Under the pieces are notes generated by a model. That model searched no databases, was not told where the DNA came from, and worked only from the letters and a program-made list of their open reading frames with translations. The translations under genes were made by a program, and so were the position numbers. From Fimbriimonadaceae bacterium (lineage in GTDB: Bacteria > Armatimonadota > Fimbriimonadia > Fimbriimonadales > Fimbriimonadaceae), in contig JBASWW010000071.1 of NCBI GenBank assembly GCA_049276675.1, positions 28,819 through 92,818 on the forward strand: a stretch of 64,000 nucleotides of DNA, written 5' to 3'. Numbering within the stretch: the stretch's first letter is position 1; each line of letters opens with the position of its first letter. Positions 1-61,850 of the stretch are shown here, piece after piece.

Positions 1-2
1 GC

Positions 3-1082
3 GAGCCATGGGCCGCTGACGAGCAGGTCGAGGACGAGGACATGTCGGTCTATGTCGGCGATCTGGATGGCCGGATCGTGGCGGCCTGGGTGGTGCGGCA
101 CATGGGTGCGACGCTCGCGGCCGAAAGCTCGGTGCGGTGTGGCGGAGTAGCCGGAGTTGCGGTGCGTCCCGATGTGCGGAGCTCGGGAGTCGGCACGTCC
201 CTTATGCGATGGGCGATCCAGCGGATGCGGGATGACGGCTATGCACTCTCCCACCTCTATGCCTTCCGGGAAAGCTGGTACCGGCGGCTCGGTTGGGAAG
301 TGTGCGGGGCGCGGATGAAAATCCAGTGTCCGCAGCACCGGCTTCCCGAGATTAGGTCCAATCTGCAGGCGCGCGAGGTCCTGGGCGAGGGTGCATGGAA
401 GGTGATCGAGCCGGTTTATCAGAGCTTTGCCAGCAATTACTCCGGAATGAACGTGCGGACGGCTAGCCAGTGGGTTACCGTGACGCGCGGCACGAAAAGT
501 CTCGCAAGGGTTTTTGCGATCGGCGACCCTGCCGAGGCGTATTGCGTTTCCCATGTCCAGACCGCCTTCTGGGAGGAGCAGCATGTCTCTGAGGTGGCTT
601 GGTCGAGCCGGGAGGGCTACGATGCTCTGCTCGCCTTCTTGCGGAGCGTTGCCTCCAACAAAACTGCGCTCACTTGGTACGAGCCTCCGGACAGCCCATT
701 TCTTGCCCAGCACACCGAGCAGGGGGTAAAGGTTTCGCTGGATCGGCCCATCATGTACCGCGTCCTCGATCTGGAGGTCTCGCTCTCCGCTCTACGGCCA
801 GATGGCGCCGGCGAATTCACGATGGCCGTTCTCGACGAAGACGTGCCTGAGAATCGCGGCCCTTGGCGTATTGCCTTTGGAGCGCACGGGATCGAAATCG
901 CCAAAGCCGTCGACGCCGACATCGAGATCGACATCCGCCGTCTCTCGCAGGCTGTTTTAGGCGAGCCCTCCTTCGCAACCTTGCTGAGGCATGGTTTGAT
1001 CAGATGCGGATCGGAGGGGGCTGCTGCGGCCGCAGCCAAGCTGTTCAGCCCGAGGCCGGTTTATTGCATGGACTTCTTTTAG
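3..1082 (+). CDS. GNAT family N-acetyltransferase, Eis-like with SCP2-type C-terminal domain (5' partial)
   Basis: ORF 42..1082 stays open upstream to base 3, so the N-terminus lies outside the window. It has an acetyl-CoA-site style segment VAVRPDVRSSGVGTSLMRWAIQ and LGWEV. Length and tail resemble three-domain Eis-type acetyltransferases. Confidence 0.6.
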   Translation, partial: EPWAADEQVEDEDMSVYVGDLDGRIVAAWVVRHMGATLAAESSVRCGGVAGVAVRPDVRSSGVGTSLMRWAIQRMRDDGYALSHLYAFRESWYRRLGWEVCGARMKIQCPQHRLPEIRSNLQAREVLGEGAWKVIEPVYQSFASNYSGMNVRTASQWVTVTRGTKSLARVFAIGDPAEAYCVSHVQTAFWEEQHVSEVAWSSREGYDALLAFLRSVASNKTALTWYEPPDSPFLAQHTEQGVKVSLDRPIMYRVLDLEVSLSALRPDGAGEFTMAVLDEDVPENRGPWRIAFGAHGIEIAKAVDADIEIDIRRLSQAVLGEPSFATLLRHGLIRCGSEGAAAAAAKLFSPRPVYCMDFF

Positions 1083-1201
1083 GCATGTCGAACCGGTTGA
1101 TGATGATTCGGGCGCGCACAAATCCTTTTTAATCCCATGTGCCTCAAGGAAATGGAGCCACAATCTGGGTAACAATCTTCTGATTCACCGAAGCTGCCGT
1201 C

Positions 1202-3238
1202 ATGCCAAAGCCTGAACCCGCGCAAGCCCTCGCCAAGCTCGAAGCCGTCCCATTCACCCAGGTGCGGATCAAGGACCGTTTCTGGGCGCCGAGGCAGGAG
1301 ACGAACCGGAAGGCGACCGTCGAGCACAGCCTGCAGATGCTCGACAAATACGGCAATCTCCTCGTCATGCAGCTTGCCGCCGCCGGTAAGCGCGAAGGAT
1401 TCAAGGGGCTGCTTTTTACCGATTCGGACCTTTACAAGACCCTGGAGGGTATCGCCTACACGCTCGCCACCCATCCCGATCCGAAGCTCGACAAGCGCAT
1501 GGACGAGATCATCGCGCTCATCTCCACAGCCCAAATGGAAGATGGCTATATCGACACTTGGTTCCAGGTCACCCGACCCGACCAGCGGTTCAAGAACCTG
1601 CGCGATTGGCACGAGATGTATTGCGCGGGGCACCTTTTCGAGGCTGCCGTCGCCCACCATCAGGCCACCGGAAAAACAAATTTCCTGGACATAGCGACGA
1701 AGCTTGCCGGGCTGCTCTACGAGAGGTATGGGCCGGATGGCGAGGTCGGCTACTGCGGCCACCCGGAGCCGGAACTTGCGCTCATCAGGCTCTGGAAAGC
1801 TACCGGGGACAAGCGATGGTTCACGCTCAGCCAGCGGATGATAGAGCACCGGGGCGACAAGATCTTCGCTGCGGAGCATAAAACGCCGGTCGAGCGCTAC
1901 GACGGCACCTACTGGCTGGACGACATGCCGATCCGGGAGCACACGGAGATCAAGGGCCATGCCGTTCGCGCGGCCTATCTGATGTCAGGCGTCGCCGATA
2001 TTGCGCGGGAAACCGGGGATGCGGGGCTCATAGAGATGCTGCAGCAGGTCTGGCGCAATACGACCCAGAAGCGCATCTACATCACCGGCGGCATCGGGCC
2101 AAGCGCCGCCAACGAGGGTTTCACCGTGGACTACGACCTCCCCAATCTCACAGCCTATCAGGAAACCTGCGCCTCCATCGCCATTTCCCTGTGGGGGCAT
2201 CGCATGACCCTGCTTCTCGGGGACGCCAAGTACATGGACGTGGTGGAGACGGCTCTCTATAATGGGCTGCTCAGCGGCATTGGGCTCGATGGCAAGAGCT
2301 TCTTTTATGTGAATCCGCTCGCGAGCGAGGGCAGCCACCACCGAAGCGAGTGGTTTGAGTGTGCCTGCTGCCCGCCGAATGTGCTCCGAACCATCGCCTC
2401 TTTAGGGGGATATGCGTATGCCAAGGGTGGCTCGGGTGCGAGAAGCCTCTACGTAAATCTTTATATCGCCGGCTCGATGGAGACCAGCCTCGACGGACAG
2501 ACGGTCGCTCTGGATGTGAAAACCGACTATCCCTGGGATGGAAAGGTCGAGATCACGATCAAGAATCCTGCCAGATTTGCGCTGCACCTACGCAACCCGG
2601 GCTGGTGCCGGAACGCCACCATTCATTTCCCTGGAGGGACCCGCTCCGTCGGGTCCAACGCCTGCGCAGATGACGCGGACCCGACGGGGTCCAACGCCTG
2701 CGCAGATGACGCGGACCCGACGGTGTCCAACGCCTTCGCTGATGACGCGGACCCGACGGGGTCCAACGCCTTCGCTGATGACGCGGACCCGACGGAGCGG
2801 GTCCCTCCCGTGGAAAAGGGATATGTGGTTATAGATAGAACGTGGGAGGCAGGGGACAAGGTGGTCTTGGGCCTGGACATGCCCATCGTTCAGATGATCG
2901 CCAACCCTGCCGTGGAGGAAAATGCCGGGCGATTGGCGATCCAGCGAGGACCGCTCGTTTACTGTGCGGAGGAGCCAGATAACGAGATAGCGGTCGGGGA
3001 GATCGTCATCCCGGCGGGGAGCCCTATGCGGAGCCGGTTCCAGGAGGATTTGCTTGGCGGCGTCGTTGTAGTCGAAGCGGACGCGCTGCGGTCTCCGGCT
3101 TTAGATTGGGATGGGACGCTGTATCAACCTATCCAAGAGTCAAGGAAGATAACGGCGAATTGCATCCCATACGGTTTTTGGGCGAACCGCCTGCCCGGAG
3201 CAATGGCCGTCTGGTTCCCTGCGCTACCGCTTTCCTGA
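1202..3238 (+). CDS. Glycoside hydrolase family 127 (beta-L-arabinofuranosidase-like, DUF1680)
   Basis: 678-aa ORF with HypBA1-type motifs YQETCAS and ECACCPPNVLR (Glu/Cys plus Cys-Cys site) and HPEPELALIRLW. It carries an in-frame repeat insertion near the C-terminus. Confidence 0.85.
   Translation: MPKPEPAQALAKLEAVPFTQVRIKDRFWAPRQETNRKATVEHSLQMLDKYGNLLVMQLAAAGKREGFKGLLFTDSDLYKTLEGIAYTLATHPDPKLDKRMDEIIALISTAQMEDGYIDTWFQVTRPDQRFKNLRDWHEMYCAGHLFEAAVAHHQATGKTNFLDIATKLAGLLYERYGPDGEVGYCGHPEPELALIRLWKATGDKRWFTLSQRMIEHRGDKIFAAEHKTPVERYDGTYWLDDMPIREHTEIKGHAVRAAYLMSGVADIARETGDAGLIEMLQQVWRNTTQKRIYITGGIGPSAANEGFTVDYDLPNLTAYQETCASIAISLWGHRMTLLLGDAKYMDVVETALYNGLLSGIGLDGKSFFYVNPLASEGSHHRSEWFECACCPPNVLRTIASLGGYAYAKGGSGARSLYVNLYIAGSMETSLDGQTVALDVKTDYPWDGKVEITIKNPARFALHLRNPGWCRNATIHFPGGTRSVGSNACADDADPTGSNACADDADPTVSNAFADDADPTGSNAFADDADPTERVPPVEKGYVVIDRTWEAGDKVVLGLDMPIVQMIANPAVEENAGRLAIQRGPLVYCAEEPDNEIAVGEIVIPAGSPMRSRFQEDLLGGVVVVEADALRSPALDWDGTLYQPIQESRKITANCIPYGFWANRLPGAMAVWFPALPLS
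2633..2808. repeat. Composite palindromic/tandem repeat element: 23-nt perfect inverted arms flanking four 36-bp tandem units
   Basis: Arm ggagggacccgctccgtcgggtc (2633-2655) is the exact reverse complement of gacccgacggagcgggtccctcc (2786-2808). Units lie at 2651-2686, 2687-2722, 2723-2758 and 2759-2794. Units 1 and 2 are identical; units 3 and 4 differ from them at a few positions. The element translates as (G/V)SNA(C/F)ADDADPT x4. Confidence 0.95.
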
Positions 3239-5464
3239 GGGGCTTGGCCGCCTTTCTGCGATCTGCACGATCCCTGCGTCTATATATTGTCCTCCGGAGT
3301 TCTGGTGGCATTGGATTGCGAGGACGTGCCGGCCCTTGGACAGGTTGGGTATCGGGACATTGCGGTAACTGGTGGTCCAGCCGGGCGCCTTGTAGATCTG
3401 CTTCCCGTCTAGCCAGACCGTGACGTCGTCGTCGTGGTGGATCCGGAGAAACATTGGCGACTTTCGATTGGCGATTTGCGGTGATACTGTGAAAGTTCGG
3501 CGAAGCCAGATGTCCTCCGTGTTCCACTTCGTGCGCACGATCGCACCGGGCGTTTCGGGCGTGCCGAATCCGCCAGGCCCGGCAGACCATGTGATCGCTT
3601 CAAAGGACGGCAAAAGCCAGCCCTCGGGGGGTGGCGTAGTGGTGAATCTCCAATCTTGACCGGTAGCTTCGGATGTTGGCAGGATCGGGATGAACCTCGG
3701 CGGCGGCAGAAAGAGCGATTGAACTGCCTCGCGAACCCTCGTCTCGTCCATCTTCAGCAGTGCGCGATCGTAGGTCATAAGCCCATTGACCTCTGCCTCG
3801 ACATCCGTGGTTTGCGTATAGACAGCGCCGGAGAGCCCCGGCTTGTCAATGAGATAGCGTAATTCTTCGAGGAGCATCACGAATCGGTCGGTCAGCTCTT
3901 TTTTGGTTTTGAAGGATTGATAGCCCCAGCCGGTTTCATGCCACATGTGCCCCGGCATCGGCAGGCCAAGCCCGCCGAATTCGCCTAGAAAGAGGGCCCG
4001 CTTGGGATCACGTGGTGGCGAGCTTGGCCCGGGGTACACGTGCCAGTCGAAAAAGTCCCCCACCCCCCTATCCGTCCATCCAGAAGCGCTGTTCACGAGC
4101 CTCGTAGGGTCGTACTCCTTGACCCACTTCGCGACCTTGGCCGTTTCCCATTGGCCCCAGCCTTCGTTAAAGGGCACCCAGCTAACGATCGAAGGATGAT
4201 TTTTAAGCGAGTCGATCATCGCTTTCAATTCGGCCCGGTAGATCGCGGCCGATTCAGGCGTGCGCGTGATGTCCGGGTCGTCGCCGCCGATGTATTTGTC
4301 CCCGCTCGGCATGTCCTGCATGACCAGAAGGCCCATCTTGTCCGTCCAGTAATACCAGCGCGCGGACTCGACCTTCACGTGTTTGCGTACCATATTGAAG
4401 CCGAGACGCTTCGTGACGTCGAGGTCGTATTTCATCGCCGCATCGCTAGGCGGCGTATAGAGCCCGTCTGGCCAGAAACCCTGGTCGAGAGGCCCGATCA
4501 GGAAGATGGGCTTCCCATTAAGATGCACTCTCGGCTGTCCGCTCTCGTCCTTTTTGAGCGAGACCTCACGGAACGCAAAGTAGCTCGTGACCTCGTCATG
4601 AAGCCATGAAACTTTGAACGAATACAGCGTGGGGCTGTCCGGCGACCAAAGCTTGGGCTTGGGAACCTTCAAAACCGCCGTCGTGCCATATACCGCCTTC
4701 TTGCGGATCTTCTTCGACCCATCCGAAATCTCGACCGTGAAAGTGGTCCTCACCGTCGGGCCGCCGAATGACGTCCGCGGGCGGAGGGATACTCGCACCG
4801 TGCCGTCGTTGCTCGTCTTCACGTCCAGCCCGTCGATCGAATGCGCCGGCACCCCTTCCAGCCAAACCGTCTGCCAGATGCCGCTCGTCGGCACGTACCA
4901 GATACCCTCCGGCTTCAAGACCTGCTTTCCGCGAGGCTGGGTCCCCGCATCCGACGGATCGCGGACCGAAACGAACAGCTCCTGCTCCCCCGAAGGCTTC
5001 AACGCATCCGTGATGTCGAACGTGAACGGATCATAGCCGCCCCGATGCGTGCCGACCAACTGGCCATTGACCCACACCGCCGTCTCCCAATCGACAGCGC
5101 CGAAGTGCAGCAGCACGCGGTCGCCTTTCGGGCGGGAAAAGGTCGTCCGGTACCACATCGTGTCCTCCGGCCCCACTCGCCGCGCAATACCGGAAAGCTG
5201 CGATTCCACCGGGAACGGGACGAGGATCTTATCGGACAGAGCCTCCACACGAGGACGTGTGGAGGAATTTCCGGGGAAAAGTGCGAATTGCCACAGCCCG
5301 TTCAGGTTCACCCAATTCTTGCGCACCATCTGCGGGCGCGGGTATTCGCGGTGCGCATTGCCCGCCGTCACCTTGTCGGTCCATCGAGTCTTGAGCGTCT
5401 GCCCGCCCGCCGGAATGACGAAAAGAGCCAACACCAGGCACAGGAGAACCGCTCCGCTGTTCAT
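3224..5464 (-). CDS. Glycoside hydrolase family 2 protein (beta-galactosidase/mannosidase-like), secreted
   Basis: Domain order is sugar-binding, Ig-like, then TIM barrel, with NMVRKHVKVE and WVPFNEGWG (NE acid/base style). The signal-peptide-like MNSGAVLLCLVLALFVIPAGG favours ATG 5464 over the ORF-track start at 5509. Confidence 0.8.
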   Translation of the reverse strand: MNSGAVLLCLVLALFVIPAGGQTLKTRWTDKVTAGNAHREYPRPQMVRKNWVNLNGLWQFALFPGNSSTRPRVEALSDKILVPFPVESQLSGIARRVGPEDTMWYRTTFSRPKGDRVLLHFGAVDWETAVWVNGQLVGTHRGGYDPFTFDITDALKPSGEQELFVSVRDPSDAGTQPRGKQVLKPEGIWYVPTSGIWQTVWLEGVPAHSIDGLDVKTSNDGTVRVSLRPRTSFGGPTVRTTFTVEISDGSKKIRKKAVYGTTAVLKVPKPKLWSPDSPTLYSFKVSWLHDEVTSYFAFREVSLKKDESGQPRVHLNGKPIFLIGPLDQGFWPDGLYTPPSDAAMKYDLDVTKRLGFNMVRKHVKVESARWYYWTDKMGLLVMQDMPSGDKYIGGDDPDITRTPESAAIYRAELKAMIDSLKNHPSIVSWVPFNEGWGQWETAKVAKWVKEYDPTRLVNSASGWTDRGVGDFFDWHVYPGPSSPPRDPKRALFLGEFGGLGLPMPGHMWHETGWGYQSFKTKKELTDRFVMLLEELRYLIDKPGLSGAVYTQTTDVEAEVNGLMTYDRALLKMDETRVREAVQSLFLPPPRFIPILPTSEATGQDWRFTTTPPPEGWLLPSFEAITWSAGPGGFGTPETPGAIVRTKWNTEDIWLRRTFTVSPQIANRKSPMFLRIHHDDDVTVWLDGKQIYKAPGWTTSYRNVPIPNLSKGRHVLAIQCHQNSGGQYIDAGIVQIAERRPSPSGKR

Positions 5465-5613
5465 AGCCAAGAGAATACGACATCGGGATGCCTCAGGATG
5501 CGGGGGCACGATTCATCCCCGAGCCCACAGGATTCATCCCCGGCCCACAGGGCTCATCACCGGCCCAGCCCGCACGATTGATCCCCGCCGTTGGAGATTT
5601 GAGAGGCGCAAGG

Positions 5614-7464
5614 ATGAACAGTGCCCATGCCTGCCAAAATGCGGGCATGCTCAGCGTGATCATTGCGGCTGCCGTCGGACAGTCCACCGTCGAATGGCCC
5701 GCCTACGGCAACGACCCGGGCGGAATGCGCTATTCGACCCTGGCCGCGATAGACAAGTCCCATGTCAAGAAGCTAAAAGTGGCTTGGACATATCGGCACG
5801 GCGACATCGCAGATGAGCGAGGGCAGCCCAAATCCTCCTTCGAGTCCACGCCGATCATGGTCGGCGGAACCCTCTATTTCAGCACACCCTTCAGCCGTGT
5901 GATTGCCCTCAATGCGGCGACCGGTGAGCACCAATGGTCTTTCGATCCGAAGATCAACCGCCGCCGCCCGATAGCGAGCGAGCCCCTGATCCACCGCGGC
6001 GTTGCGGCCTGGCGCGACTCCAAGACGGGCCAGAGACGCATATTCATTGGCACCTATGACGCACGGCTCTTCGCCCTCGATGCGGCATCCGGCAAGCCCC
6101 TAAAAGATTTTGGCGATGCGGGCATGATCGATCTCAAGAAGGGCCTTCGAAGAGTGATCCCCGGCGAATACCAGATCGCCCAGCCGCCCACGGTGATCGG
6201 CGATATCGTCGTCATGGGCTCGACAATCGGCGACAACAACGAGGCGGAGGCTTCCAGCGGCACTGTTCGGGCGTTCGACGCGAGGACCGGGGAGCTGGTC
6301 TGGTCCTTCGAGCCCTTTCCCGGAGGGGCGGCGAATGCGTGGGCAGTGATGTCGGCCGATCCCGCGACCGGGACCGTCTTCATCCCTACGAGCAGCCCGA
6401 GCCCGGATTACTTTGGCGGCCTCCGGCCCGGAAACAATGCGGACGCCAACAGCCTCGTCGCTCTGAATGCGAAGACCGGGCGGGTCAAGTGGCGCTACCA
6501 GGTCGTACGGCACGACGTATGGGACTACGACATCCCAGCGCAGCCAATTCTCTGCACGATCCGTCGAATCCCTGCGGTGGTGATCCTGACCAAGATGGGG
6601 TTCGTATTCGTGTTGGATCGGCGCACGGGGAAGCCGATATCGCCGGTCGCGGACAAAGTGGTGCCCGCATCCAAGGTGCCTGGGGAGAAGCTCTCGCGAA
6701 CGCAGCCGGTTCCGAAGCTGCCCGCCCCACTCGTGCCGCAGAAGCTCGCCGGACCCTTCGGCAACAATCCGCAAGAGCTCGAGGCGGCTCGCGCTCAGAT
6801 CGGGCGTCTGCCGCTTGGCAAGCTCTACGATCCGCCCAGCCTGGCCGGGACGATCCAGTATCCGGGGGCGATCGGGGGCTGCAATTGGTCGGGGGGCGCG
6901 TTCGACCCGGCCACGACGACGCTTTACGTGAACACGAACAACGTTCCGACCCTCGTGCGGCTGATCCCGCGCGATAAGGTTCCGGAGTATCTCACGGAGA
7001 ACCCCGGCGCCGCCGTCAGCAAGATGGCGGGCGCACCCTATGTCCTGGCGCGAAACACGATGCTCACGCCGGATCGCCTGCCCATCAATCCGCCGCCCTG
7101 GGGCGTGCTGACGACGGTCGATCTCACGAGCGGAAAGCTGCGATGGCAAAAGCCGCTCGGATTCGTGCCGAAGCTGGCCGCCAATCCCCTTGCCAAGAAG
7201 TGGGGCTCGCCTAATTTCGGCGGCGCAATCGTGACCAAGGGCGGCCTTGTCTTCATCGCCGCGGCGCAGGACAACATCTTTCGAGCTTTTGATGCTGCGA
7301 GTGGGAAGGTGCTGTGGGAATACGAGCTTCCCGCAGGGGGCAATGCGACGCCGATGACCTACTCGGTGGGCGGGAGACAGTACGTCGTGATCTGCGCGGG
7401 CGGGCACTCGGGGCTTGACACCAAGCGCGGGGACTACGTGATCGCGTTCGCGTTGCCACAGTAG
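5614..7464 (+). CDS. PQQ-dependent dehydrogenase (quinoprotein glucose/sorbosone dehydrogenase-like beta-propeller)
   Basis: WPAYGNDPGGMRYS...LKVAWTY start of quinoprotein propellers, repeated blade motifs, and the C-terminal GGNATPMTY..VVICAGGH. The internal ATG at 5614 gives a signal-like N-terminus. Confidence 0.8.
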   Translation: MNSAHACQNAGMLSVIIAAAVGQSTVEWPAYGNDPGGMRYSTLAAIDKSHVKKLKVAWTYRHGDIADERGQPKSSFESTPIMVGGTLYFSTPFSRVIALNAATGEHQWSFDPKINRRRPIASEPLIHRGVAAWRDSKTGQRRIFIGTYDARLFALDAASGKPLKDFGDAGMIDLKKGLRRVIPGEYQIAQPPTVIGDIVVMGSTIGDNNEAEASSGTVRAFDARTGELVWSFEPFPGGAANAWAVMSADPATGTVFIPTSSPSPDYFGGLRPGNNADANSLVALNAKTGRVKWRYQVVRHDVWDYDIPAQPILCTIRRIPAVVILTKMGFVFVLDRRTGKPISPVADKVVPASKVPGEKLSRTQPVPKLPAPLVPQKLAGPFGNNPQELEAARAQIGRLPLGKLYDPPSLAGTIQYPGAIGGCNWSGGAFDPATTTLYVNTNNVPTLVRLIPRDKVPEYLTENPGAAVSKMAGAPYVLARNTMLTPDRLPINPPPWGVLTTVDLTSGKLRWQKPLGFVPKLAANPLAKKWGSPNFGGAIVTKGGLVFIAAAQDNIFRAFDAASGKVLWEYELPAGGNATPMTYSVGGRQYVVICAGGHSGLDTKRGDYVIAFALPQ

Positions 7465-34807: not shown

Positions 34808-36718
34808 GTGAGGCGGTTCATTACATCTTTGCCCGGGCGCGCCGTGATGCATTTCATGGCTGTCGCCCTTGTTTTGCCGTACCTATCTCTCGCGCTTGCG
34901 AATAGGGCCGAGGCTCAGCTTACGACTTTGCAGTCGTGGGCCGTGCTGGAGTTCGAAAACCAGAGCAAGAAAGGTGGGGCAAACTTTGGAAAGGCTGCTG
35001 CTGAGGCAGTCCATAACGAGTTGGCGAAAGCAGCCAAGGTTGACACCGTGCCGCAGGAGACGATCCAGCGGTCGATGACCGATCTTGGCCAGGTTCCGCC
35101 ACTCCGCACGAAGACGGACATGCTGCGTCTGGGCCAAGAGGTTCGAGCAACTTCTGTGGTAACCGGCGCGGTGGTCGACTGGCGTGTATCTCAGAGTGGA
35201 GGCGGAAAGAGCGGCGAGGTCGTCCTGCAGGTGATCGTCACCGACGTTGCGTCGGGGTTGCCCGCGAATGGCGCCCTTGTACAGGGTCAATCGACGACGC
35301 GTGCCGGCGACGTGTCGGATGAGACGCTTATCAACGAGGCTCTTTCGTCGGCAGCAGCGCAAGCCGTTCTGACAATCAATAGCCAGATCCTTCCGACGGG
35401 GACGGTTTTGAATACCGTCGGCCAGGAAGCTCTGATCAATCAGGGCGAGCGAACCGGCTTCAAGGTCGGGCAGGAAGTTGTCGTCCTTCGGGGACGTCAG
35501 CAGGTTGCGACCGCGGTTGTGGTCGACACCGATCCCGATAGCTCGAACATTCGAATCACTAAACAAATCCTTGGCACACAGCCTGGGGACAAGGTTCGGG
35601 CGATCTTCCCGGTGCCTGTTCCCAAGGCAGGCGGGGGGGTTTGGGGCTCTCCTGGCGGCACGCCGAACGCGAAGCCGGGAGCACGACGGGCACGTGGGGG
35701 CGCTGGCATTGGCTCCATCGCCGTTCTCATTGGCATTGCCGCGATCTTGTTCGGGGGCGGCCGCGGGTCCAGCGGAACTTTGGCCCATGATGTGAACGCC
35801 CAGGCTACGCTCTATCCGAACGAGTCGGGTGTGCCGGCAGTTCATCTGAGCTGGAGCCCGGATCTGTTCGCAAAGGGTGCGCAGCAGCGCGTCCAGTGGC
35901 AGATTTGGCGGGACGACGTCATTGACACCCCGGTTCTTGCCGTCTCTGGCGATCGGGTGACCGCCATAGACACAACGGAAGCAAGGGATGTCAGCTGGCA
36001 AGGTGCTCCGACCGGAGGCACTGAATGTGTTGGGGACAGTCGTGAAGACGCTCTGGCCCGACCTGGTGTTACGCCAGGCAGACCCTATCAGTATCAAGTT
36101 CAGTTGCTCTACAAGGTCAATTCGATCGATCTGCCCACCGGTGGCGGTGGTACCGGAACGACTGGAACGACTGGAACTACTGGAACGACCGGAACGACCG
36201 GAACGACGGGAACGACGGGCACAAATCTCTCTACAGGTGGAACAACCACCGGTGGAACAACCACGACCGGCGGAACGACGGGAACGCAGGATTGCTACTT
36301 CGCTTCGCTCAAGACAGCTGCTCGGGGCCTTGCGACCCCGTACAACAGACCTACGTTGGTTTCGCCGGCTCCCAATGCGGTGATTTCAACGCCGACGCCG
36401 TTTAGCTTCCAGTCGGTGGTGAATCCAGCATTCCCGTCGACGGTGCTATACGTGGTTCAGATCGCTACCACACCGACCTTCCCCAAGGGATCGACGGTTA
36501 CGGTTGCAACCCTGACCCGAAACGACCTGGGGACCTTGAGCACGGCCATTGTGGACGTGAGCACGATATTCCCAGGAGCTAATGAACTGTGGTGGAGGGT
36601 TGGCGCCCGCAATGTTGCGGACAATCCGGGGCCTTTGCCGGATTCGAGTGGCCAACGTTACATCTTCAGCTCCCCGCGAAGGTTCACGAGGCCGGGCGGT
36701 CCTCCTCCGCCTCCGTAA
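34808..36718 (+). CDS. Hypothetical envelope protein: signal peptide, LpoB/CsgG-like N-terminal module, internal TM helix, Thr/Gly-repeat linker
   Basis: GTG start 10 nt after AAGGAGG. WAVLEFENQSKKGG...VVTGAVVDW resembles the alpha/beta module of LpoB/CsgG/TolB-N type lipoproteins. Hydrophobic IGSIAVLIGIAAILFGG and a (TGT)n stretch are present. Confidence 0.6.
   Translation: MRRFITSLPGRAVMHFMAVALVLPYLSLALANRAEAQLTTLQSWAVLEFENQSKKGGANFGKAAAEAVHNELAKAAKVDTVPQETIQRSMTDLGQVPPLRTKTDMLRLGQEVRATSVVTGAVVDWRVSQSGGGKSGEVVLQVIVTDVASGLPANGALVQGQSTTRAGDVSDETLINEALSSAAAQAVLTINSQILPTGTVLNTVGQEALINQGERTGFKVGQEVVVLRGRQQVATAVVVDTDPDSSNIRITKQILGTQPGDKVRAIFPVPVPKAGGGVWGSPGGTPNAKPGARRARGGAGIGSIAVLIGIAAILFGGGRGSSGTLAHDVNAQATLYPNESGVPAVHLSWSPDLFAKGAQQRVQWQIWRDDVIDTPVLAVSGDRVTAIDTTEARDVSWQGAPTGGTECVGDSREDALARPGVTPGRPYQYQVQLLYKVNSIDLPTGGGGTGTTGTTGTTGTTGTTGTTGTTGTNLSTGGTTTGGTTTTGGTTGTQDCYFASLKTAARGLATPYNRPTLVSPAPNAVISTPTPFSFQSVVNPAFPSTVLYVVQIATTPTFPKGSTVTVATLTRNDLGTLSTAIVDVSTIFPGANELWWRVGARNVADNPGPLPDSSGQRYIFSSPRRFTRPGGPPPPP
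36155..36217. repeat. Seven tandem 9-bp units (ggaacgacN) encoding (GTT)7
   Basis: ggaacgact x2, ggaactact, ggaacgacc x2, ggaacgacg x2, followed by degenerate GGTTT-type units to about 36290. Confidence 0.95.
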
Positions 36719-55845: not shown

Positions 55846-55881
55846 GGATTTTTGGGCCGGCGAAAGCCGGCCCCTCCTTTC

Positions 55882-56847: not shown

Positions 56848-58368
56848 TTAGGCCTTGCCGTTTTTGCCCGCTCTGATCGCAGGCACCTTTTGCACCAGAT
56901 CAGGCAGGTTGATGCCGCTGAGGGCTTCCACCACGACCGGGACCTGGGCCAGCACATCGGCCACGCCTTTGCTCAGCTTGTCCATGCCGGTATCGCCGCC
57001 GCCGGTGTTGACCATCGTGATCTTGTCGATCTTGCCAAGCGGGGCGGCCACAGCAGCAGCTATCTCCGGAAGCTTCTCGATCAGCATCTGGCTGACGGCG
57101 GCCTCATTGTATTCCTGCCAAGCCTTGGCTTTTTGCATCATGCCTTCGGCCTCGGCGAGGATTTTGGCCCGCATGCCTTCCGCCTCGGCGAGCGATTTCT
57201 GTCGGATGGCTTCCGCTTCGGCATCGCCCTTGGCACGGATCACATCGGCATCCGCCATGCCAAGGATTCGGGCAGAGTCCGCTTCGGCCTCGGCGAGGGC
57301 TCTGCGACGATGCGCCTCCGCTTCGGCGAGCATCCGCACCTTGACCTTCTCGGCCTCGGCCGGCTTTTGCACCTCGTGCATCAGCTCCAACTCGCGCCGC
57401 TCGATCTCCGAGTGCTCGACCTCGATCTGCTTCTTCTTCTCAACCAGTGAGATGCCTAGAAGCTCTTCGCTGAGGAGCTGCTGCTGTTTGGCTTTCTGCA
57501 GCTCATAGGCCAGATCGCTTTCCGCTCGGGCGGTCGCCACTTCGGCTTCGAAGGCTCGCAGGCGCAGGTCCTTGTCCTTTTCCTTCTCGGCAATGGCGAT
57601 GTCGGCGCTCAATTTTGCAAGCTGGCCCTCTTCATTGGCTTTGCTCGAGGTTATGGTCGCCTCGCGCTCGGCAAGGGATTTGCCCATAGTGGCGTCACGG
57701 GTTGCGCTTGCCTCGCCGATCACGGCATTCTTCTGGACGTCGGCCATTTTGGGCCGGCCGATCGCCTTGAGATATCCCTGCGGGTCCTGGATCTCCCGGA
57801 TCGTGAACGAGATCACCTGGATGCCCATGTTCGCGAGGTCCTCCGCGGTCAGCCTCTGGACGCTCTGGGCGAAGGTTTCCGGCGAGGAGTGGATCTCCTC
57901 GAACGGCAGTGTGCTGATGACGGAGCGCAGGTGGCCGCTCATCATCTGCAGCGCGATCTCGTTCATCTCCGTTCGGCTGCGGCTGAGGAACATCTCGGCG
58001 GCGGTGATGAGCGCCGTCGGGTCGTCGGATCGCACCTTGATTTGGGCGATTCCGTCAACGATGATCGGCACGCCAAACTTCGTGTAGAACTCGGGCGTGC
58101 GGATTTCGAGCGTCATCAGCTCGAGGTTGAGGCGATCCACTCGCTCGCGAACGGGCCAGACGAACGTGCCTCCACCGTGGTAGATCCGGAAATTCTTGTG
58201 AACCCGGCTGCCGTCCTGAGCGGTGTAGCTCGAGGGCCGGCCACTGACGATGAGCACTTCATTGGGCCCTACCTTCTCGTACTTGGCGGCATAGAATCCG
58301 GCAAGCAAGAGAAGCACTACGACTGCGCTGAGCAGCCAGATCATTGGCGAATTGATGATGGTTTCCAT
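56848..58368 (-). CDS. Flotillin family protein (SPFH/Band 7 domain)
   Basis: N-terminal TM helix, SPFH core (VGPNEVLIVSG..., IVDGIAQIKV) and a long AEAEA-rich coiled-coil region. Confidence 0.88.
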   Translation of the reverse strand: METIINSPMIWLLSAVVVLLLLAGFYAAKYEKVGPNEVLIVSGRPSSYTAQDGSRVHKNFRIYHGGGTFVWPVRERVDRLNLELMTLEIRTPEFYTKFGVPIIVDGIAQIKVRSDDPTALITAAEMFLSRSRTEMNEIALQMMSGHLRSVISTLPFEEIHSSPETFAQSVQRLTAEDLANMGIQVISFTIREIQDPQGYLKAIGRPKMADVQKNAVIGEASATRDATMGKSLAEREATITSSKANEEGQLAKLSADIAIAEKEKDKDLRLRAFEAEVATARAESDLAYELQKAKQQQLLSEELLGISLVEKKKQIEVEHSEIERRELELMHEVQKPAEAEKVKVRMLAEAEAHRRRALAEAEADSARILGMADADVIRAKGDAEAEAIRQKSLAEAEGMRAKILAEAEGMMQKAKAWQEYNEAAVSQMLIEKLPEIAAAVAAPLGKIDKITMVNTGGGDTGMDKLSKGVADVLAQVPVVVEALSGINLPDLVQKVPAIRAGKNGKA

Positions 58369-60867: not shown

Positions 60868-60944
60868 TCACTGAATTTGCAAGGGCTCACTACCAGCAGG
60901 GGCCTGCTCCGTCGGGTCCGTGCAGTTGGCTGAATACGCGGCGC

Positions 60945-61084
60945 GATTGACACGACGGAGCGTGTCCCTCCTGCTCCCCGAGATCACTCCCCGGGCTCCT
61001 CATCCGCGGTCAGCGATTGACACGACGGAGCGTGTCCATCCTGCTCCCCGAGATCACTCCTCCGGCTCCTCATCCGCGGTCAGC
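60945..61084. repeat. Two tandem 70-bp units, each with a gacacg-acggag-cgtgtc hairpin; the second unit includes the 3' end of the PrcA-like gene
   Basis: Units 60945-61014 and 61015-61084 differ at only a few positions. Each would encode LTADEEP(G/E)E-stop on the minus strand. Confidence 0.95.
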
Positions 61085-61746
61085 CTTCTGAAGCGGTTCT
61101 CGTGGGTTTGGCCCCTTTCCAAAAGGACCGCTTCGGGATACACGCCGTCAGTCGGCTTGGCATCGCCTTCGGACTGGGCCGCATCCACCCAAGCCTTCTT
61201 CAGCGCCTCCGAGGCCGCCTCGGGAGTTAAGCCCTTCGTCTTGATGGCGGCCAGAGAGGCCTTGAGACGGGCTGCTGACTCGTCGTTCGCCGCGCAATAG
61301 GCAAACCCGCGCCTCTGGGTGTAGTCGCCGTCGTAATCGAGGATGTAGTAGGAGTCCTCGGCGGGAGTGTCGCCGCACTCCGCAAAGAGCGCCCGGGCGA
61401 CGAATGGCGCGGTGTTGAAATCCCCGAAGGCCCGCTTGAGGGACCCGCTCAGGGCGGTGACGACCCGCTGGATAGTGACATCCTGCTCGCTCCGGTTGAA
61501 CCCCTCTTGATGGGCGAAGTCTATTGCGGCCACCCTCAGTGCCTCGACGTCCGACTGCTGGCCGATCGCCCCGAACATGAGCTGATCGTATATCTCGTAG
61601 ACCTTGCGGGCATGGCGGCGGTAGGTCAGCATGAGGATTCCGGCGTCGAGCGACAGGGCCAGCACGGGCGAGCCCTGACCAAGCTTGGATTCGACGTAGC
61701 CGGCTCTGTGGCCCATGCCCTCTTGCCAGTCGTAGGGGGTCAGCAT
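61054..61746 (-). CDS. Proteasome alpha-type (PrcA-like) Ntn-fold protein, isolated gene
   Basis: The block order resembles actinobacterial PrcA: SPVLALSLDAGILMLTY, KVYEIYDQLMFGAIGQQSDVEALR, ARALFAECG...YYILDYDGDY, and the tail NRFRRLT. There is no Thr directly preceding the first strand. ATG 61746 avoids overlap with tRNA-Lys. Confidence 0.6.
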   Translation of the reverse strand: MLTPYDWQEGMGHRAGYVESKLGQGSPVLALSLDAGILMLTYRRHARKVYEIYDQLMFGAIGQQSDVEALRVAAIDFAHQEGFNRSEQDVTIQRVVTALSGSLKRAFGDFNTAPFVARALFAECGDTPAEDSYYILDYDGDYTQRRGFAYCAANDESAARLKASLAAIKTKGLTPEAASEALKKAWVDAAQSEGDAKPTDGVYPEAVLLERGQTHENRFRRLTADEEPEE

Positions 61747-61774
61747 TGATTTTTTATACTCAGCGGTCAGGCGG

Positions 61775-61850
61775 TGGTGAGTCGGCTGGGACTCGAACCC
61801 AGGACCCACGCCTTAAAAGGGCGTTGCTCTACCGACTGAGCTACCGACTC
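61775..61850 (-). tRNA. tRNA-Lys (anticodon UUU), CCA encoded
   Basis: Hand fold of GAGTCGGTAGCTCAGTCGGTAGAGCAACGCCCTTTTAAGGCGTGGGTCCTGGGTTCGAGTCCCAGCCGACTCACCA. Acceptor GAGTCGG/CCGACTC, anticodon loop CTTTTAA, T-loop GGTTCGAGTCC. Confidence 0.92.

Follow-up and report, generated by a model that had tools for sequence, protein, structure and literature searches.

A GGAG-tagged palindromic element with an amplified 36-bp unit lies in frame in a GH127 gene of a Fimbriimonadaceae bacterium

The 64-kb window analyzed here, a stretch of contig JBASWW010000071.1 from a Fimbriimonadaceae bacterium (Armatimonadota), carries a 176-nt palindromic element (2633-2808) inside a gene for a GH127 beta-L-arabinofuranosidase. 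The element consists of two perfect inverted arms and four tandem 36-bp units. It is a lineage-specific insertion that retains the reading frame of the gene, and its product is predicted to be a disordered loop. The arms belong to a dispersed family of hairpins with an unpaired GGAG tag. It is likely, in our judgment, that an element resembling repetitive extragenic palindromic (REP) sequences and their REPIN dimers entered the GH127 gene, was amplified internally and is translated as a near-neutral loop.

Anatomy of the element

The two 24-nt arms (GGAGGGACCCGCTCCGTCGGGTCC) are exact inverted copies of each other, and shuffled versions of the window give 0 matches of this kind. Each arm forms a hairpin with a 7-bp stem (GGACCCG/CGGGTCC), a CTCCGT loop and an unpaired GGAG in front. 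A first-pass annotation of the window recognized the inverted arms, the hairpins and the four enclosed units but gave the arms as 23 nt and the stems as 6 bp. The left arm codes for G478-S485 (GGTRSVGS). A covariance model (R1) built from 52 arms of the family scores both arms at E values of approximately 1e-9, locating the left arm at 2631-2662 (43.6 bits, E 8e-10) and the right arm at 2779-2810 on the minus strand (43.0 bits, E 1.2e-9). The inverted repeat extends imperfectly to 31 nt. In the additional 7 nt on each side, four of seven positions match, and the extension overlaps host codons, including that of the invariant G478.

Tandem Repeats Finder (TRF) places the array at 2651-2795 with a period of 36, 4.0 copies, 96% matches and a score of 255. 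The units are arranged head-to-tail, share 94-100% identity and overlap the inner halves of both arms. Each unit begins with the left arm's 3' half-stem, continues with a 20-nt spacer (AACGCCTGCGCAGATGACGC or a TTCGCT variant) and ends with the right arm's 5' half-stem. Because the unit is made of half-stems and spacer, every unit junction recreates a hairpin (GGACCC-GACG-GGGTCC). Units 1 and 2 are identical, and units 3 and 4 share the two substitutions that had been noticed earlier (G>T and A>T), with one more G>T in unit 3. The 10-bp internal inverted repeat that was ascribed to each unit survives in a restricted form. An inverted repeat of 10/11 nt (CCGTCGGGTCC/GGACCCGACGG) pairs the left arm with the 3' end of every unit, whereas the internal units pair with one another over GGGTCC/GGACCC (6 bp) only. 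Thus, the 10-bp arrangement holds fully for the first unit alone.

The 144-nt array translates in frame as (G/V)SNA(C/F)ADDADPT x4 in the open reading frame (ORF) of the gene, as first annotated, and the whole insert codes for GGTRSV-(GSNACADDADPT)x4-ERVPP. Each unit contributes four aspartates, which gives the segment a net charge of approximately -16. The opposite strand is also open, as had been claimed, in a minus-strand ORF at 2623..2886. Besides the gene frame, one more frame on the plus strand and one or more on the minus strand are open across the element, and a six-frame reading of both arms directly from the sequence gives zero stop codons. As RNA, a 201-nt stretch folds with -118.7 kcal/mol (z = -7.5 relative to shuffles); as DNA, its z value is -7.1.

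The host protein and the location of the insert

GH127 enzymes combine a catalytic domain with two beta-sandwich domains (PMC10850190). The host protein, which is 100% identical to MFY9235414.1 (NCBI; metagenome-assembled genome of a Fimbriimonadaceae bacterium, Armatimonadota), shows this architecture. Pfam identifies PF07944 (E 3e-105), PF20736 and PF20737 above cut-off as the catalytic, middle and C-terminal domains, respectively. The AlphaFold model superposes on Ara127N, BT3674 and HypBA1 (4QK0, 6EX6 and 3WKW) in Foldseek with template modeling (TM) scores of 0.76-0.83 (0.78/0.83 for 4QK0). In addition to the catalytic (alpha/alpha)6 domain and the two beta-sandwich domains, the protein has the Cys3-Glu zinc site of the class, with ligands assigned by motif. 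No variation is seen in the orthologue alignment at E321, C323, C389 and C390, which belong to the zinc-site and catalytic motifs.

The PF20736 match, which corresponds to the middle domain (beta-sandwich 1), covers profile positions 2-66 of 95 only (residues 416-480). Since it stops at residue 480, the element interrupts the middle domain and not the C-terminal region to which it was first assigned. No Pfam family covers residues 481-564. In the structural model, the insert is a predicted unstructured loop, consistent with the surface exposure for which the first-pass annotation had proposed modeling as a check. The predicted local distance difference test (pLDDT) score falls below 50 for residues 487-532 and lies at 23-33 over 490-530, with no secondary structure and with confident strands on either side. 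HypBA1 dimerizes via beta-sandwich 2 (PMC10850190). The insert lies in beta-sandwich 1 and, by analogy with HypBA1, is therefore probably located away from the dimer interface.

Insertion into a conserved gene

Fourteen orthologues (56-80% identity) have nothing at the insertion site. In the alignment with Ara127N (4QJY), residues 19-478 of the host protein correspond to chain residues 14-500 and residues 530-672 to chain residues 502-645, so that 51 residues stand where the crystal structure has one. This number falls within the 48-58 lineage-specific residues that were estimated beforehand, and neither the 14 orthologues nor Ara127N have homologous residues at the site. A syntenic empty site is found in a related species (contig L001), where the gene order acetyltransferase-GH127-GH2 is kept at 81-83% nucleotide identity. 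The site reads ...AAT GGC GAA AAG GTT CTT CGC CCA AAG... and has nothing in common with the arms or the spacer. The ratio of nonsynonymous to synonymous substitution rates (dN/dS) relative to L001 is 0.10 upstream of the insert and 0.14 downstream. The low downstream value indicates that the frame beyond the element is kept by purifying selection.

An independent ENA assembly (L003) is 99.2% identical to the window over 5.5 kb (43 mismatches and one indel) and contains the same arms, four units and flanks. Over the 2,037 nt of the gene, the two strains differ at three positions only, all within the repeat (2724, 2772 and 2776), whereas the flanking genes differ by dozens of single-nucleotide polymorphisms. 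The unit order is A-A-B'-B in the window and A-A-B-A in L003, and the indexed ENA copy of the host protein differs by two residues, both within the repeat. Judged from the two sequences, the altered unit order is probably a mark of exchange between units, and read ambiguity at the 2.8x coverage of L003 is the less likely cause.

A third contig (L002 10001-12020; ENA ERZ534011, protein P0003) is 99.6% identical to window positions 1-2380. It then switches inside the conserved CACCPPN motif of GH127 to an Ara127N-like C-terminus that shows no nucleotide similarity and has no insert. L002 is either an assembly chimera or a recombinant allele.

The GGAG-tagged hairpin family

The suggestion that the arm is a dispersed repeat is borne out inside and outside the window. 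The window contains a second, intergenic family member at 60.9 kb, flanked by convergent galT and proteasome-like genes. The right arm of this locus at 60948-60971 has a compensatory stem change (GACACG/CGTGTC), and R1 scores its two arms at E 2e-4 and 2.5e-8. Outside the window, one genome per species was scanned with the pattern GGGACNCGCTCCGTCGNGTCC, and all of the family counts given below are among the matches listed. The scan yields at least 119 stretches in approximately 75 assemblies, compared with approximately four that we estimate to occur by chance. The assemblies are labeled Verrucomicrobiota, Planctomycetota, Kiritimatiellae (Kiritimatiellota), Lentisphaerae (Lentisphaerota), Desulfobacterota, Fermentibacteria, Eisenbacteria, Chloroflexota and Chthonomonas (Armatimonadota). 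The same 21-24-mer is thus found across at least eight phyla, on up to nine contigs per genome.

The family consensus is (T)GGAG-GGNCNNG-CTCCGT-CNNGNCC-G, in which the tag and loop are conserved and the stem varies with compensation. Of 241 arms, 201 carry the tag GGAG and three carry GTAG. Perfect 7-bp stems enclose the CTCCGT loop 173 times and its one-base variants CTCTGT and CTTCGT 14 and four times, respectively, compared with 0-3 times for scrambled control loops. In a set chosen for at least six of seven stem pairs, five of the seven pairs change on both sides, 97% of the cells are paired, and the covariation score is 0.58 versus 0.13 for shuffled arms. Among arms that were not selected for the stem, 42 of 54 likewise form at least six of the seven pairs.

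The family members occur as 79 single arms, 41 tags-outward dimers (33 with different stems and eight with the same stem), 20 tags-inward dimers and 12 tandem pairs. According to crude gene calls, 19 intergenic clusters lie between convergent genes and five between divergent genes, and approximately one third of the copies fall inside greedy ORFs. One locus (L107, minus strand) contains an array of at least five arms with a 36-nt period. Tandem arms are also observed in L009, L035, L053, L060 and L082, with periods of 32, 39, 38, 196 and 122 nt among these loci. Array formation seems to be a family trait.

Neither Rfam nor the searchable literature yielded a description of the family, of its GGAG tag or of its spread across phyla. 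At the gathering score, Rfam reports tRNAs only for the window and 10 loci, and at E values up to 10 it gives chance-level matches only for region 2500-2950. Literature searches with the arm sequence and the encoded peptides found no paper; the motif is absent from the supplements of PMC3733652, and 'GGAG' is absent from its text. An arm scan of 2.9 million viral contigs gave 0 matches, and all-against-all clustering of 2,090 ORFs from the loci revealed no recurrent neighboring gene.

In-frame copies in other genes

The arms or dimers also lie inside long ORFs of several other genomes (Table 1). Pfam supports five of the eight long ORFs that were submitted; the RHS-like proteins were judged by sequence. 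The intragenic copies occur in both orientations and in several frames. In the Chthonomonas synthetase, Pfam matches the anticodon-binding domain in two stretches, one of which begins right after the insert. The in-frame copies in further genes indicate that the behavior seen in GH127, which the first-pass annotation had likened to that of Rickettsia palindromic elements (RPEs), is a property of the family and not a one-off. They also explain, as a matter of annotation, the recurrent peptides GGTRSVAS, DATERVPP, GRDGARPS and EGRAPSRP in predicted proteins of these phyla. The synthetase is an essential gene and comes from the same phylum as the window (Armatimonadota).

Table 1. Coordinates of the element, its host gene, related loci in the window and copies in genes of other genomes
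Feature	Position or locus	Strand	Description	Basis
GH127 beta-L-arabinofuranosidase gene, element host	1202..3238	+	678 aa, 2,037 nt	Pfam, structural matches
Left arm	2633..2656	+	tag GGAG 2633-2636, stem GGACCCG 2637-2643, loop CTCCGT 2644-2649, stem CGGGTCC 2650-2656	
Right arm	2785..2808	-	exact reverse complement of left arm; codes for DPTERVPP, residues 528-535	
Outer limit of imperfect 31-nt inverted repeat	2626..2815	.	90% identity	
Four 36-bp tandem units	2651-2686, 2687-2722, 2723-2758, 2759-2794	+	residues 484-531	
Second family member	60894..60973	.	degenerate left arm 60896-60919 (+), 28-nt spacer, right arm 60948-60971 (-)	
70-bp x2 tandem duplication	60943..61082	.	95-96% identity	TRF score 263
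GH106 rhamnosidase	L097		in-frame copy, GGPRSVVAALTNGRDGARPS	Pfam
ResIII/HsdR helicases	L025, L120		in-frame copies	Pfam
MmeI-family enzyme	L068		in-frame copy	Pfam
Glu/Gln-tRNA synthetase, anticodon-binding domain	L095 5152-6930, Chthonomonas sp. UBA2387		in-frame hetero-dimer, LEGPAPSGPGADGHDGACPS	Pfam
RHS-like repeat proteins	L037, L087		carry arms	sequence

Proposed origin and mechanism

We propose that the starting element comprised two identical inverted GGAG-family arms around a 20-nt spacer, which would measure approximately 68 nt in a one-unit form. Its entry point would be the loop that follows the conserved 'NG' of beta-sandwich domain 1, and its entry would postdate the divergence from the L001 lineage and predate that of the two 99.2%-identical strains. 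The right arm's 5' half-stem may then have been joined illegitimately to the left arm's 3' half-stem, which would have produced a direct repeat of 36 bp (12 codons). The unit junction (GGACCCG-ACG-GGGTCC) is 4 nt short of a full arm. Had slippage taken place between the 7-nt direct repeats found in both arms, the period would be 40 nt and would break the frame, and the 36-nt version would be the translatable one. Once two units were present, slippage or unequal exchange could have expanded them to four, and exchange between units may still reshuffle the variants. The survivable length changes would be multiples of three in a stop-free frame only.

Given the open gene frame and a length change divisible by three, translation would run through the element and yield an acidic, disordered surface loop of 51 residues. 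The catalytic barrel and the remainder of both beta-sandwich domains are intact, and we infer from this that the insert is near-neutral passenger DNA. The mobilizing activity was probably an HUH/Y1 enzyme acting on single-stranded DNA, similar to a REP-associated tyrosine transposase (RAYT), by analogy with REPs that combine a tag and a hairpin.

Several observations weigh against this scenario. The element measures 176 nt and the net gain is 153 nt, so that the junctions are irresolvable at 80% divergence and some host sequence must have been lost or overwritten. The GH127 copy shows no target-site duplication, and its flanks (TTTCCCT and CGTGGAA) do not repeat each other directly. Two metagenome scans, one with the unit junction and one with the spacer, gave 0 matches each and revealed neither a donor with the same spacer nor an allele with another unit number. 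A tblastn search with two Pseudomonas RAYTs against the window and 122 loci (approximately 0.9 Mb) gave a best E value of 0.85, and no transposase was found in the window and the fetched loci. Sure family loci in the 64 kb number two, plus one marginal locus. Both assemblies are short-read, with L003 at 2.8x coverage, and the unit count could therefore be imprecise. The near-neutrality of the insert is itself an assumption. Finally, the motif is near-identical across phyla, in contrast to classical REPINs, whose populations are described as lineage-specific and vertically inherited.

The conservation of the unpaired positions suggests that a single trans-acting partner has been conserved, which could be an enzyme of HUH/RAYT type that spread by transfer or a protein that binds RNA. 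The near-identity of tag and loop across phyla implies that the family either spread horizontally together with a cognate enzyme or is constrained by a binding partner that is itself conserved. It is possible, although short of probable, that the arms represent an uncatalogued super-family with a GGAG tag, an invariant CTCCGT loop and a free stem that spans at least eight phyla nearly unchanged, lacks stop codons in all six frames and has entered Pfam-supported genes in frame repeatedly, among them that of an aminoacyl-tRNA synthetase. If so, no known REP-like system would range more widely, the family would generally supply proteins with new loops, and the GH127 copy would be one caught growing by 12-codon steps.

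Alternative explanations

The conserved tag and loop also fit a different account, in which the element is kept for a role as RNA or single-stranded DNA, such as slowing of ribosomes, protection or targeting of mRNA or factor binding, and the peptide is a by-product. The extreme fold energy (z = -7.5) agrees with such a role, as does the preference of intergenic copies for gene 3' ends, and a tag and loop that are conserved across phyla while the stems covary suggest recognition by a trans-acting factor. On the antisense strand, the arm loop reads ACGGAG, an ANGGAN hexaloop that we take to resemble the hairpin sites of CsrA/RsmE. The intragenic copies, however, lie in either orientation and in several frames, no Rfam family matches, and nothing links GH127 expression to the hairpin. 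We consider this account improbable.

Selection might instead have favored the peptide. An acidic 12-residue repeat could be a functional addition, serving as a flexible linker, a metal-binding stretch or a surface-charge module, with the palindrome incidental or secondary. Both strains keep four units in a gene under purifying selection, and the four aspartates per unit and the charge of approximately -16 would suit such a function. Nevertheless, the segment has neither a Pfam family nor modeled structure, no orthologue has anything at the site, and the arms match a non-coding repeat family base for base. Moreover, the changes between units include Cys>Phe and Gly>Val and do not suggest constraint. 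A functional addition thus appears slightly less probable still than a nucleic acid role. A peptide search with the 59-residue insert returned no match, not even the parent protein, and is uninformative, probably owing to composition filtering.

The insert or its unit number might also have arisen by short-read mis-assembly over the repeat. A 36-bp period across 144 bp is difficult for short reads, L003 has low coverage, the two assemblies disagree on the unit variants, and L002 shifts identity abruptly within the same gene. These concerns are outweighed by the agreement of two assemblies, distinct by 43 mismatches and one indel in 5.5 kb, on four in-frame units, arms and flanks, by the intact frame and downstream conservation, and by the match of the arms to an independently attested family. 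An artefact, which the first-pass annotation had named as a concern, is therefore very unlikely. Formation of the palindrome on the spot from host sequence (by template switching or duplication), with a coincidental resemblance to repeats elsewhere, is scarcely credible. The 24-nt match to the tag, loop and stem register of the family (R1 E of approximately 1e-9) is not chance, and at the orthologous site L001 has no sequence in common with the arms or spacer. In favor of this reading, host codons extend into the outer 6-8 nt of the arms (GGAGGG includes the codon of the invariant Gly478), and no target duplication is seen.

Candidates of other kinds were rejected. The CUGAUGA motif in units 3-4 hints at a hammerhead, for which Rfam gave tRNAs and chance matches only. 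The units are contiguous and have no spacers between them, unlike CRISPR. A gene-60-like translational bypass from GGA 478 to GGA 540 lacks a stop after the take-off codon and would remove the conserved PPVEKG segment. An intein is excluded by size and absent motifs.

Relation to known repeats

RPEs are palindromic repeats that lie in frame in genes (as cited in PMC3733652). Similar to RPEs, the GH127 element belongs to a class of palindromic repeats of approximately 100-180 nt that reside in frame in genes for known proteins, add a surface segment and have intergenic relatives; its in-frame insertion in a coding gene is supported, at the sequence level, by the frame and by purifying selection downstream. 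It differs from RPEs in its Armatimonadota host, in its 24-nt tag-plus-hairpin arms that are common to several phyla and in an interior amplified to four 36-bp units. Given the different phylum, GC content and tag, homology to RPEs is unlikely, and the element acts like an RPE without being filed as one.

REPs with GTAG or CGTC tags, bacterial interspersed mosaic elements (BIMEs) and REPINs have been described by Di Nocera et al. (2013, PMC3733652) and by Bertels and Rainey (2011, PMC3116915). Degenerate tags such as GYAG, GTRG and GTGG are allowed in REPs, and REP clusters within ORFs encode 20-82 residues in Opitutus terrae, R. conorii and Thauera (PMC3733652). The GGAG family resembles these repeats in its short GC-rich hairpin with an unpaired 4-nt end tag and compensatory stem changes; its 20-nt hairpin plus 4-nt tag lies within the 20-40 bp of REP hairpins. 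It also resembles them in its organization as singles, inverted dimers (mostly heterodimers when tags-outward) and clusters, with an extragenic gene-3'-end bias and occasional copies inside ORFs. In contrast to GTAG/CGTC REPs, the tag is GGAG, and the 6-nt CTCCGT loop is as strongly conserved as the tag. In contrast to REPINs, nearly the same 24-mer occurs in at least eight phyla and does not follow lineage-specific vertical inheritance. The proposed likeness to classical REPs therefore extends to the hairpin and the organization but not to genome specificity. A classical GTAG-tagged REP hairpin (GTAGGGGCGCAGCACGCTGCGCCC) is located at 11939-11962 of L002, approximately 60 nt past the stop of the divergent GH127 end. 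It belongs to a repeat family separate from the GGAG family and shares the tag-plus-hairpin architecture.

The first-pass annotation described the element as being of REP/MITE type. The REP- and RPE-like part of this description is supported, whereas the label of miniature inverted-repeat transposable element (MITE) is not established, since neither a target-site duplication nor a parent insertion sequence was found. The element is short, non-coding and dispersed with perfect 24-nt terminal inverted repeats, similar to MITEs. In contrast to MITEs, the GH127 copy lacks a target-site duplication, the fetched DNA yielded no autonomous element sharing its ends, and each of its 'terminal inverted repeats' is an independent hairpin that also occurs alone (79 singles). 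The 36-bp period, which is divisible by three, and the variants reshuffled between strains are shared with intragenic tandem repeats made by slippage. Unlike plain slippage repeats, the unit is built from the two half-stems of a palindromic element and its spacer.

Intragenic palindromic repeats are among the few routes to wholly new peptide segments in bacteria, and so far most documented cases come from Rickettsia and a small number of REP-rich genomes. The GH127 case extends the phenomenon to Armatimonadota and reveals a second step, in which the interior grows by 12-codon units that continue to be reshuffled between strains. Taken alone, the locus adds one more instance of a known phenomenon, set apart by its new phylum and its unusual internal amplification, and the wider family is the more interesting lead. 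Should one cognate enzyme or binding protein serve the whole family, the family would offer a tractable system for asking by what route REP-like DNA spreads and why coding sequence tolerates it.

Other repeats in the window

The 60.9-kb locus is similar to the GH127 copy in that a tandem duplication is anchored on a hairpin arm. The duplicated 70 bp includes a second copy of the right arm (61018-61041, minus strand; R1 E 5.5e-7) as well as the last 29 nt and the stop codon of the proteasome-like ORF (61054..61809, minus strand). At 55848-55879 on the minus strand, a hairpin (GGAGGGGCCGG-CTTTCG-CCGGCCC) lies between two minus-strand genes, 9 nt upstream of an ATG. The arm model scores it at 19 bits (E 0.005), and it is either a degenerate relative of the arm family or an ordinary terminator. 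An arm-core match at 58011 is intragenic and was judged to be chance.

A 20-bp unit (GATTCATCCCCGGCCCACAG) is repeated 2.8 times at 5510-5567, at the junction of a minus-strand GH2 ORF and a plus-strand PQQ-dehydrogenase ORF. The longest called forms of the two ORFs (3224-5509 and 5488-7464) overlap at this repeat, which may be operator-like. Two further tandem repeats are intragenic. One consists of 6.9 copies of 9 bp (GGAACGACT) at 36155-36216, and the other consists of 2.5 copies of 33 bp at 57139-57222 and extends to six copies of 33/39 nt at 57111-57331.

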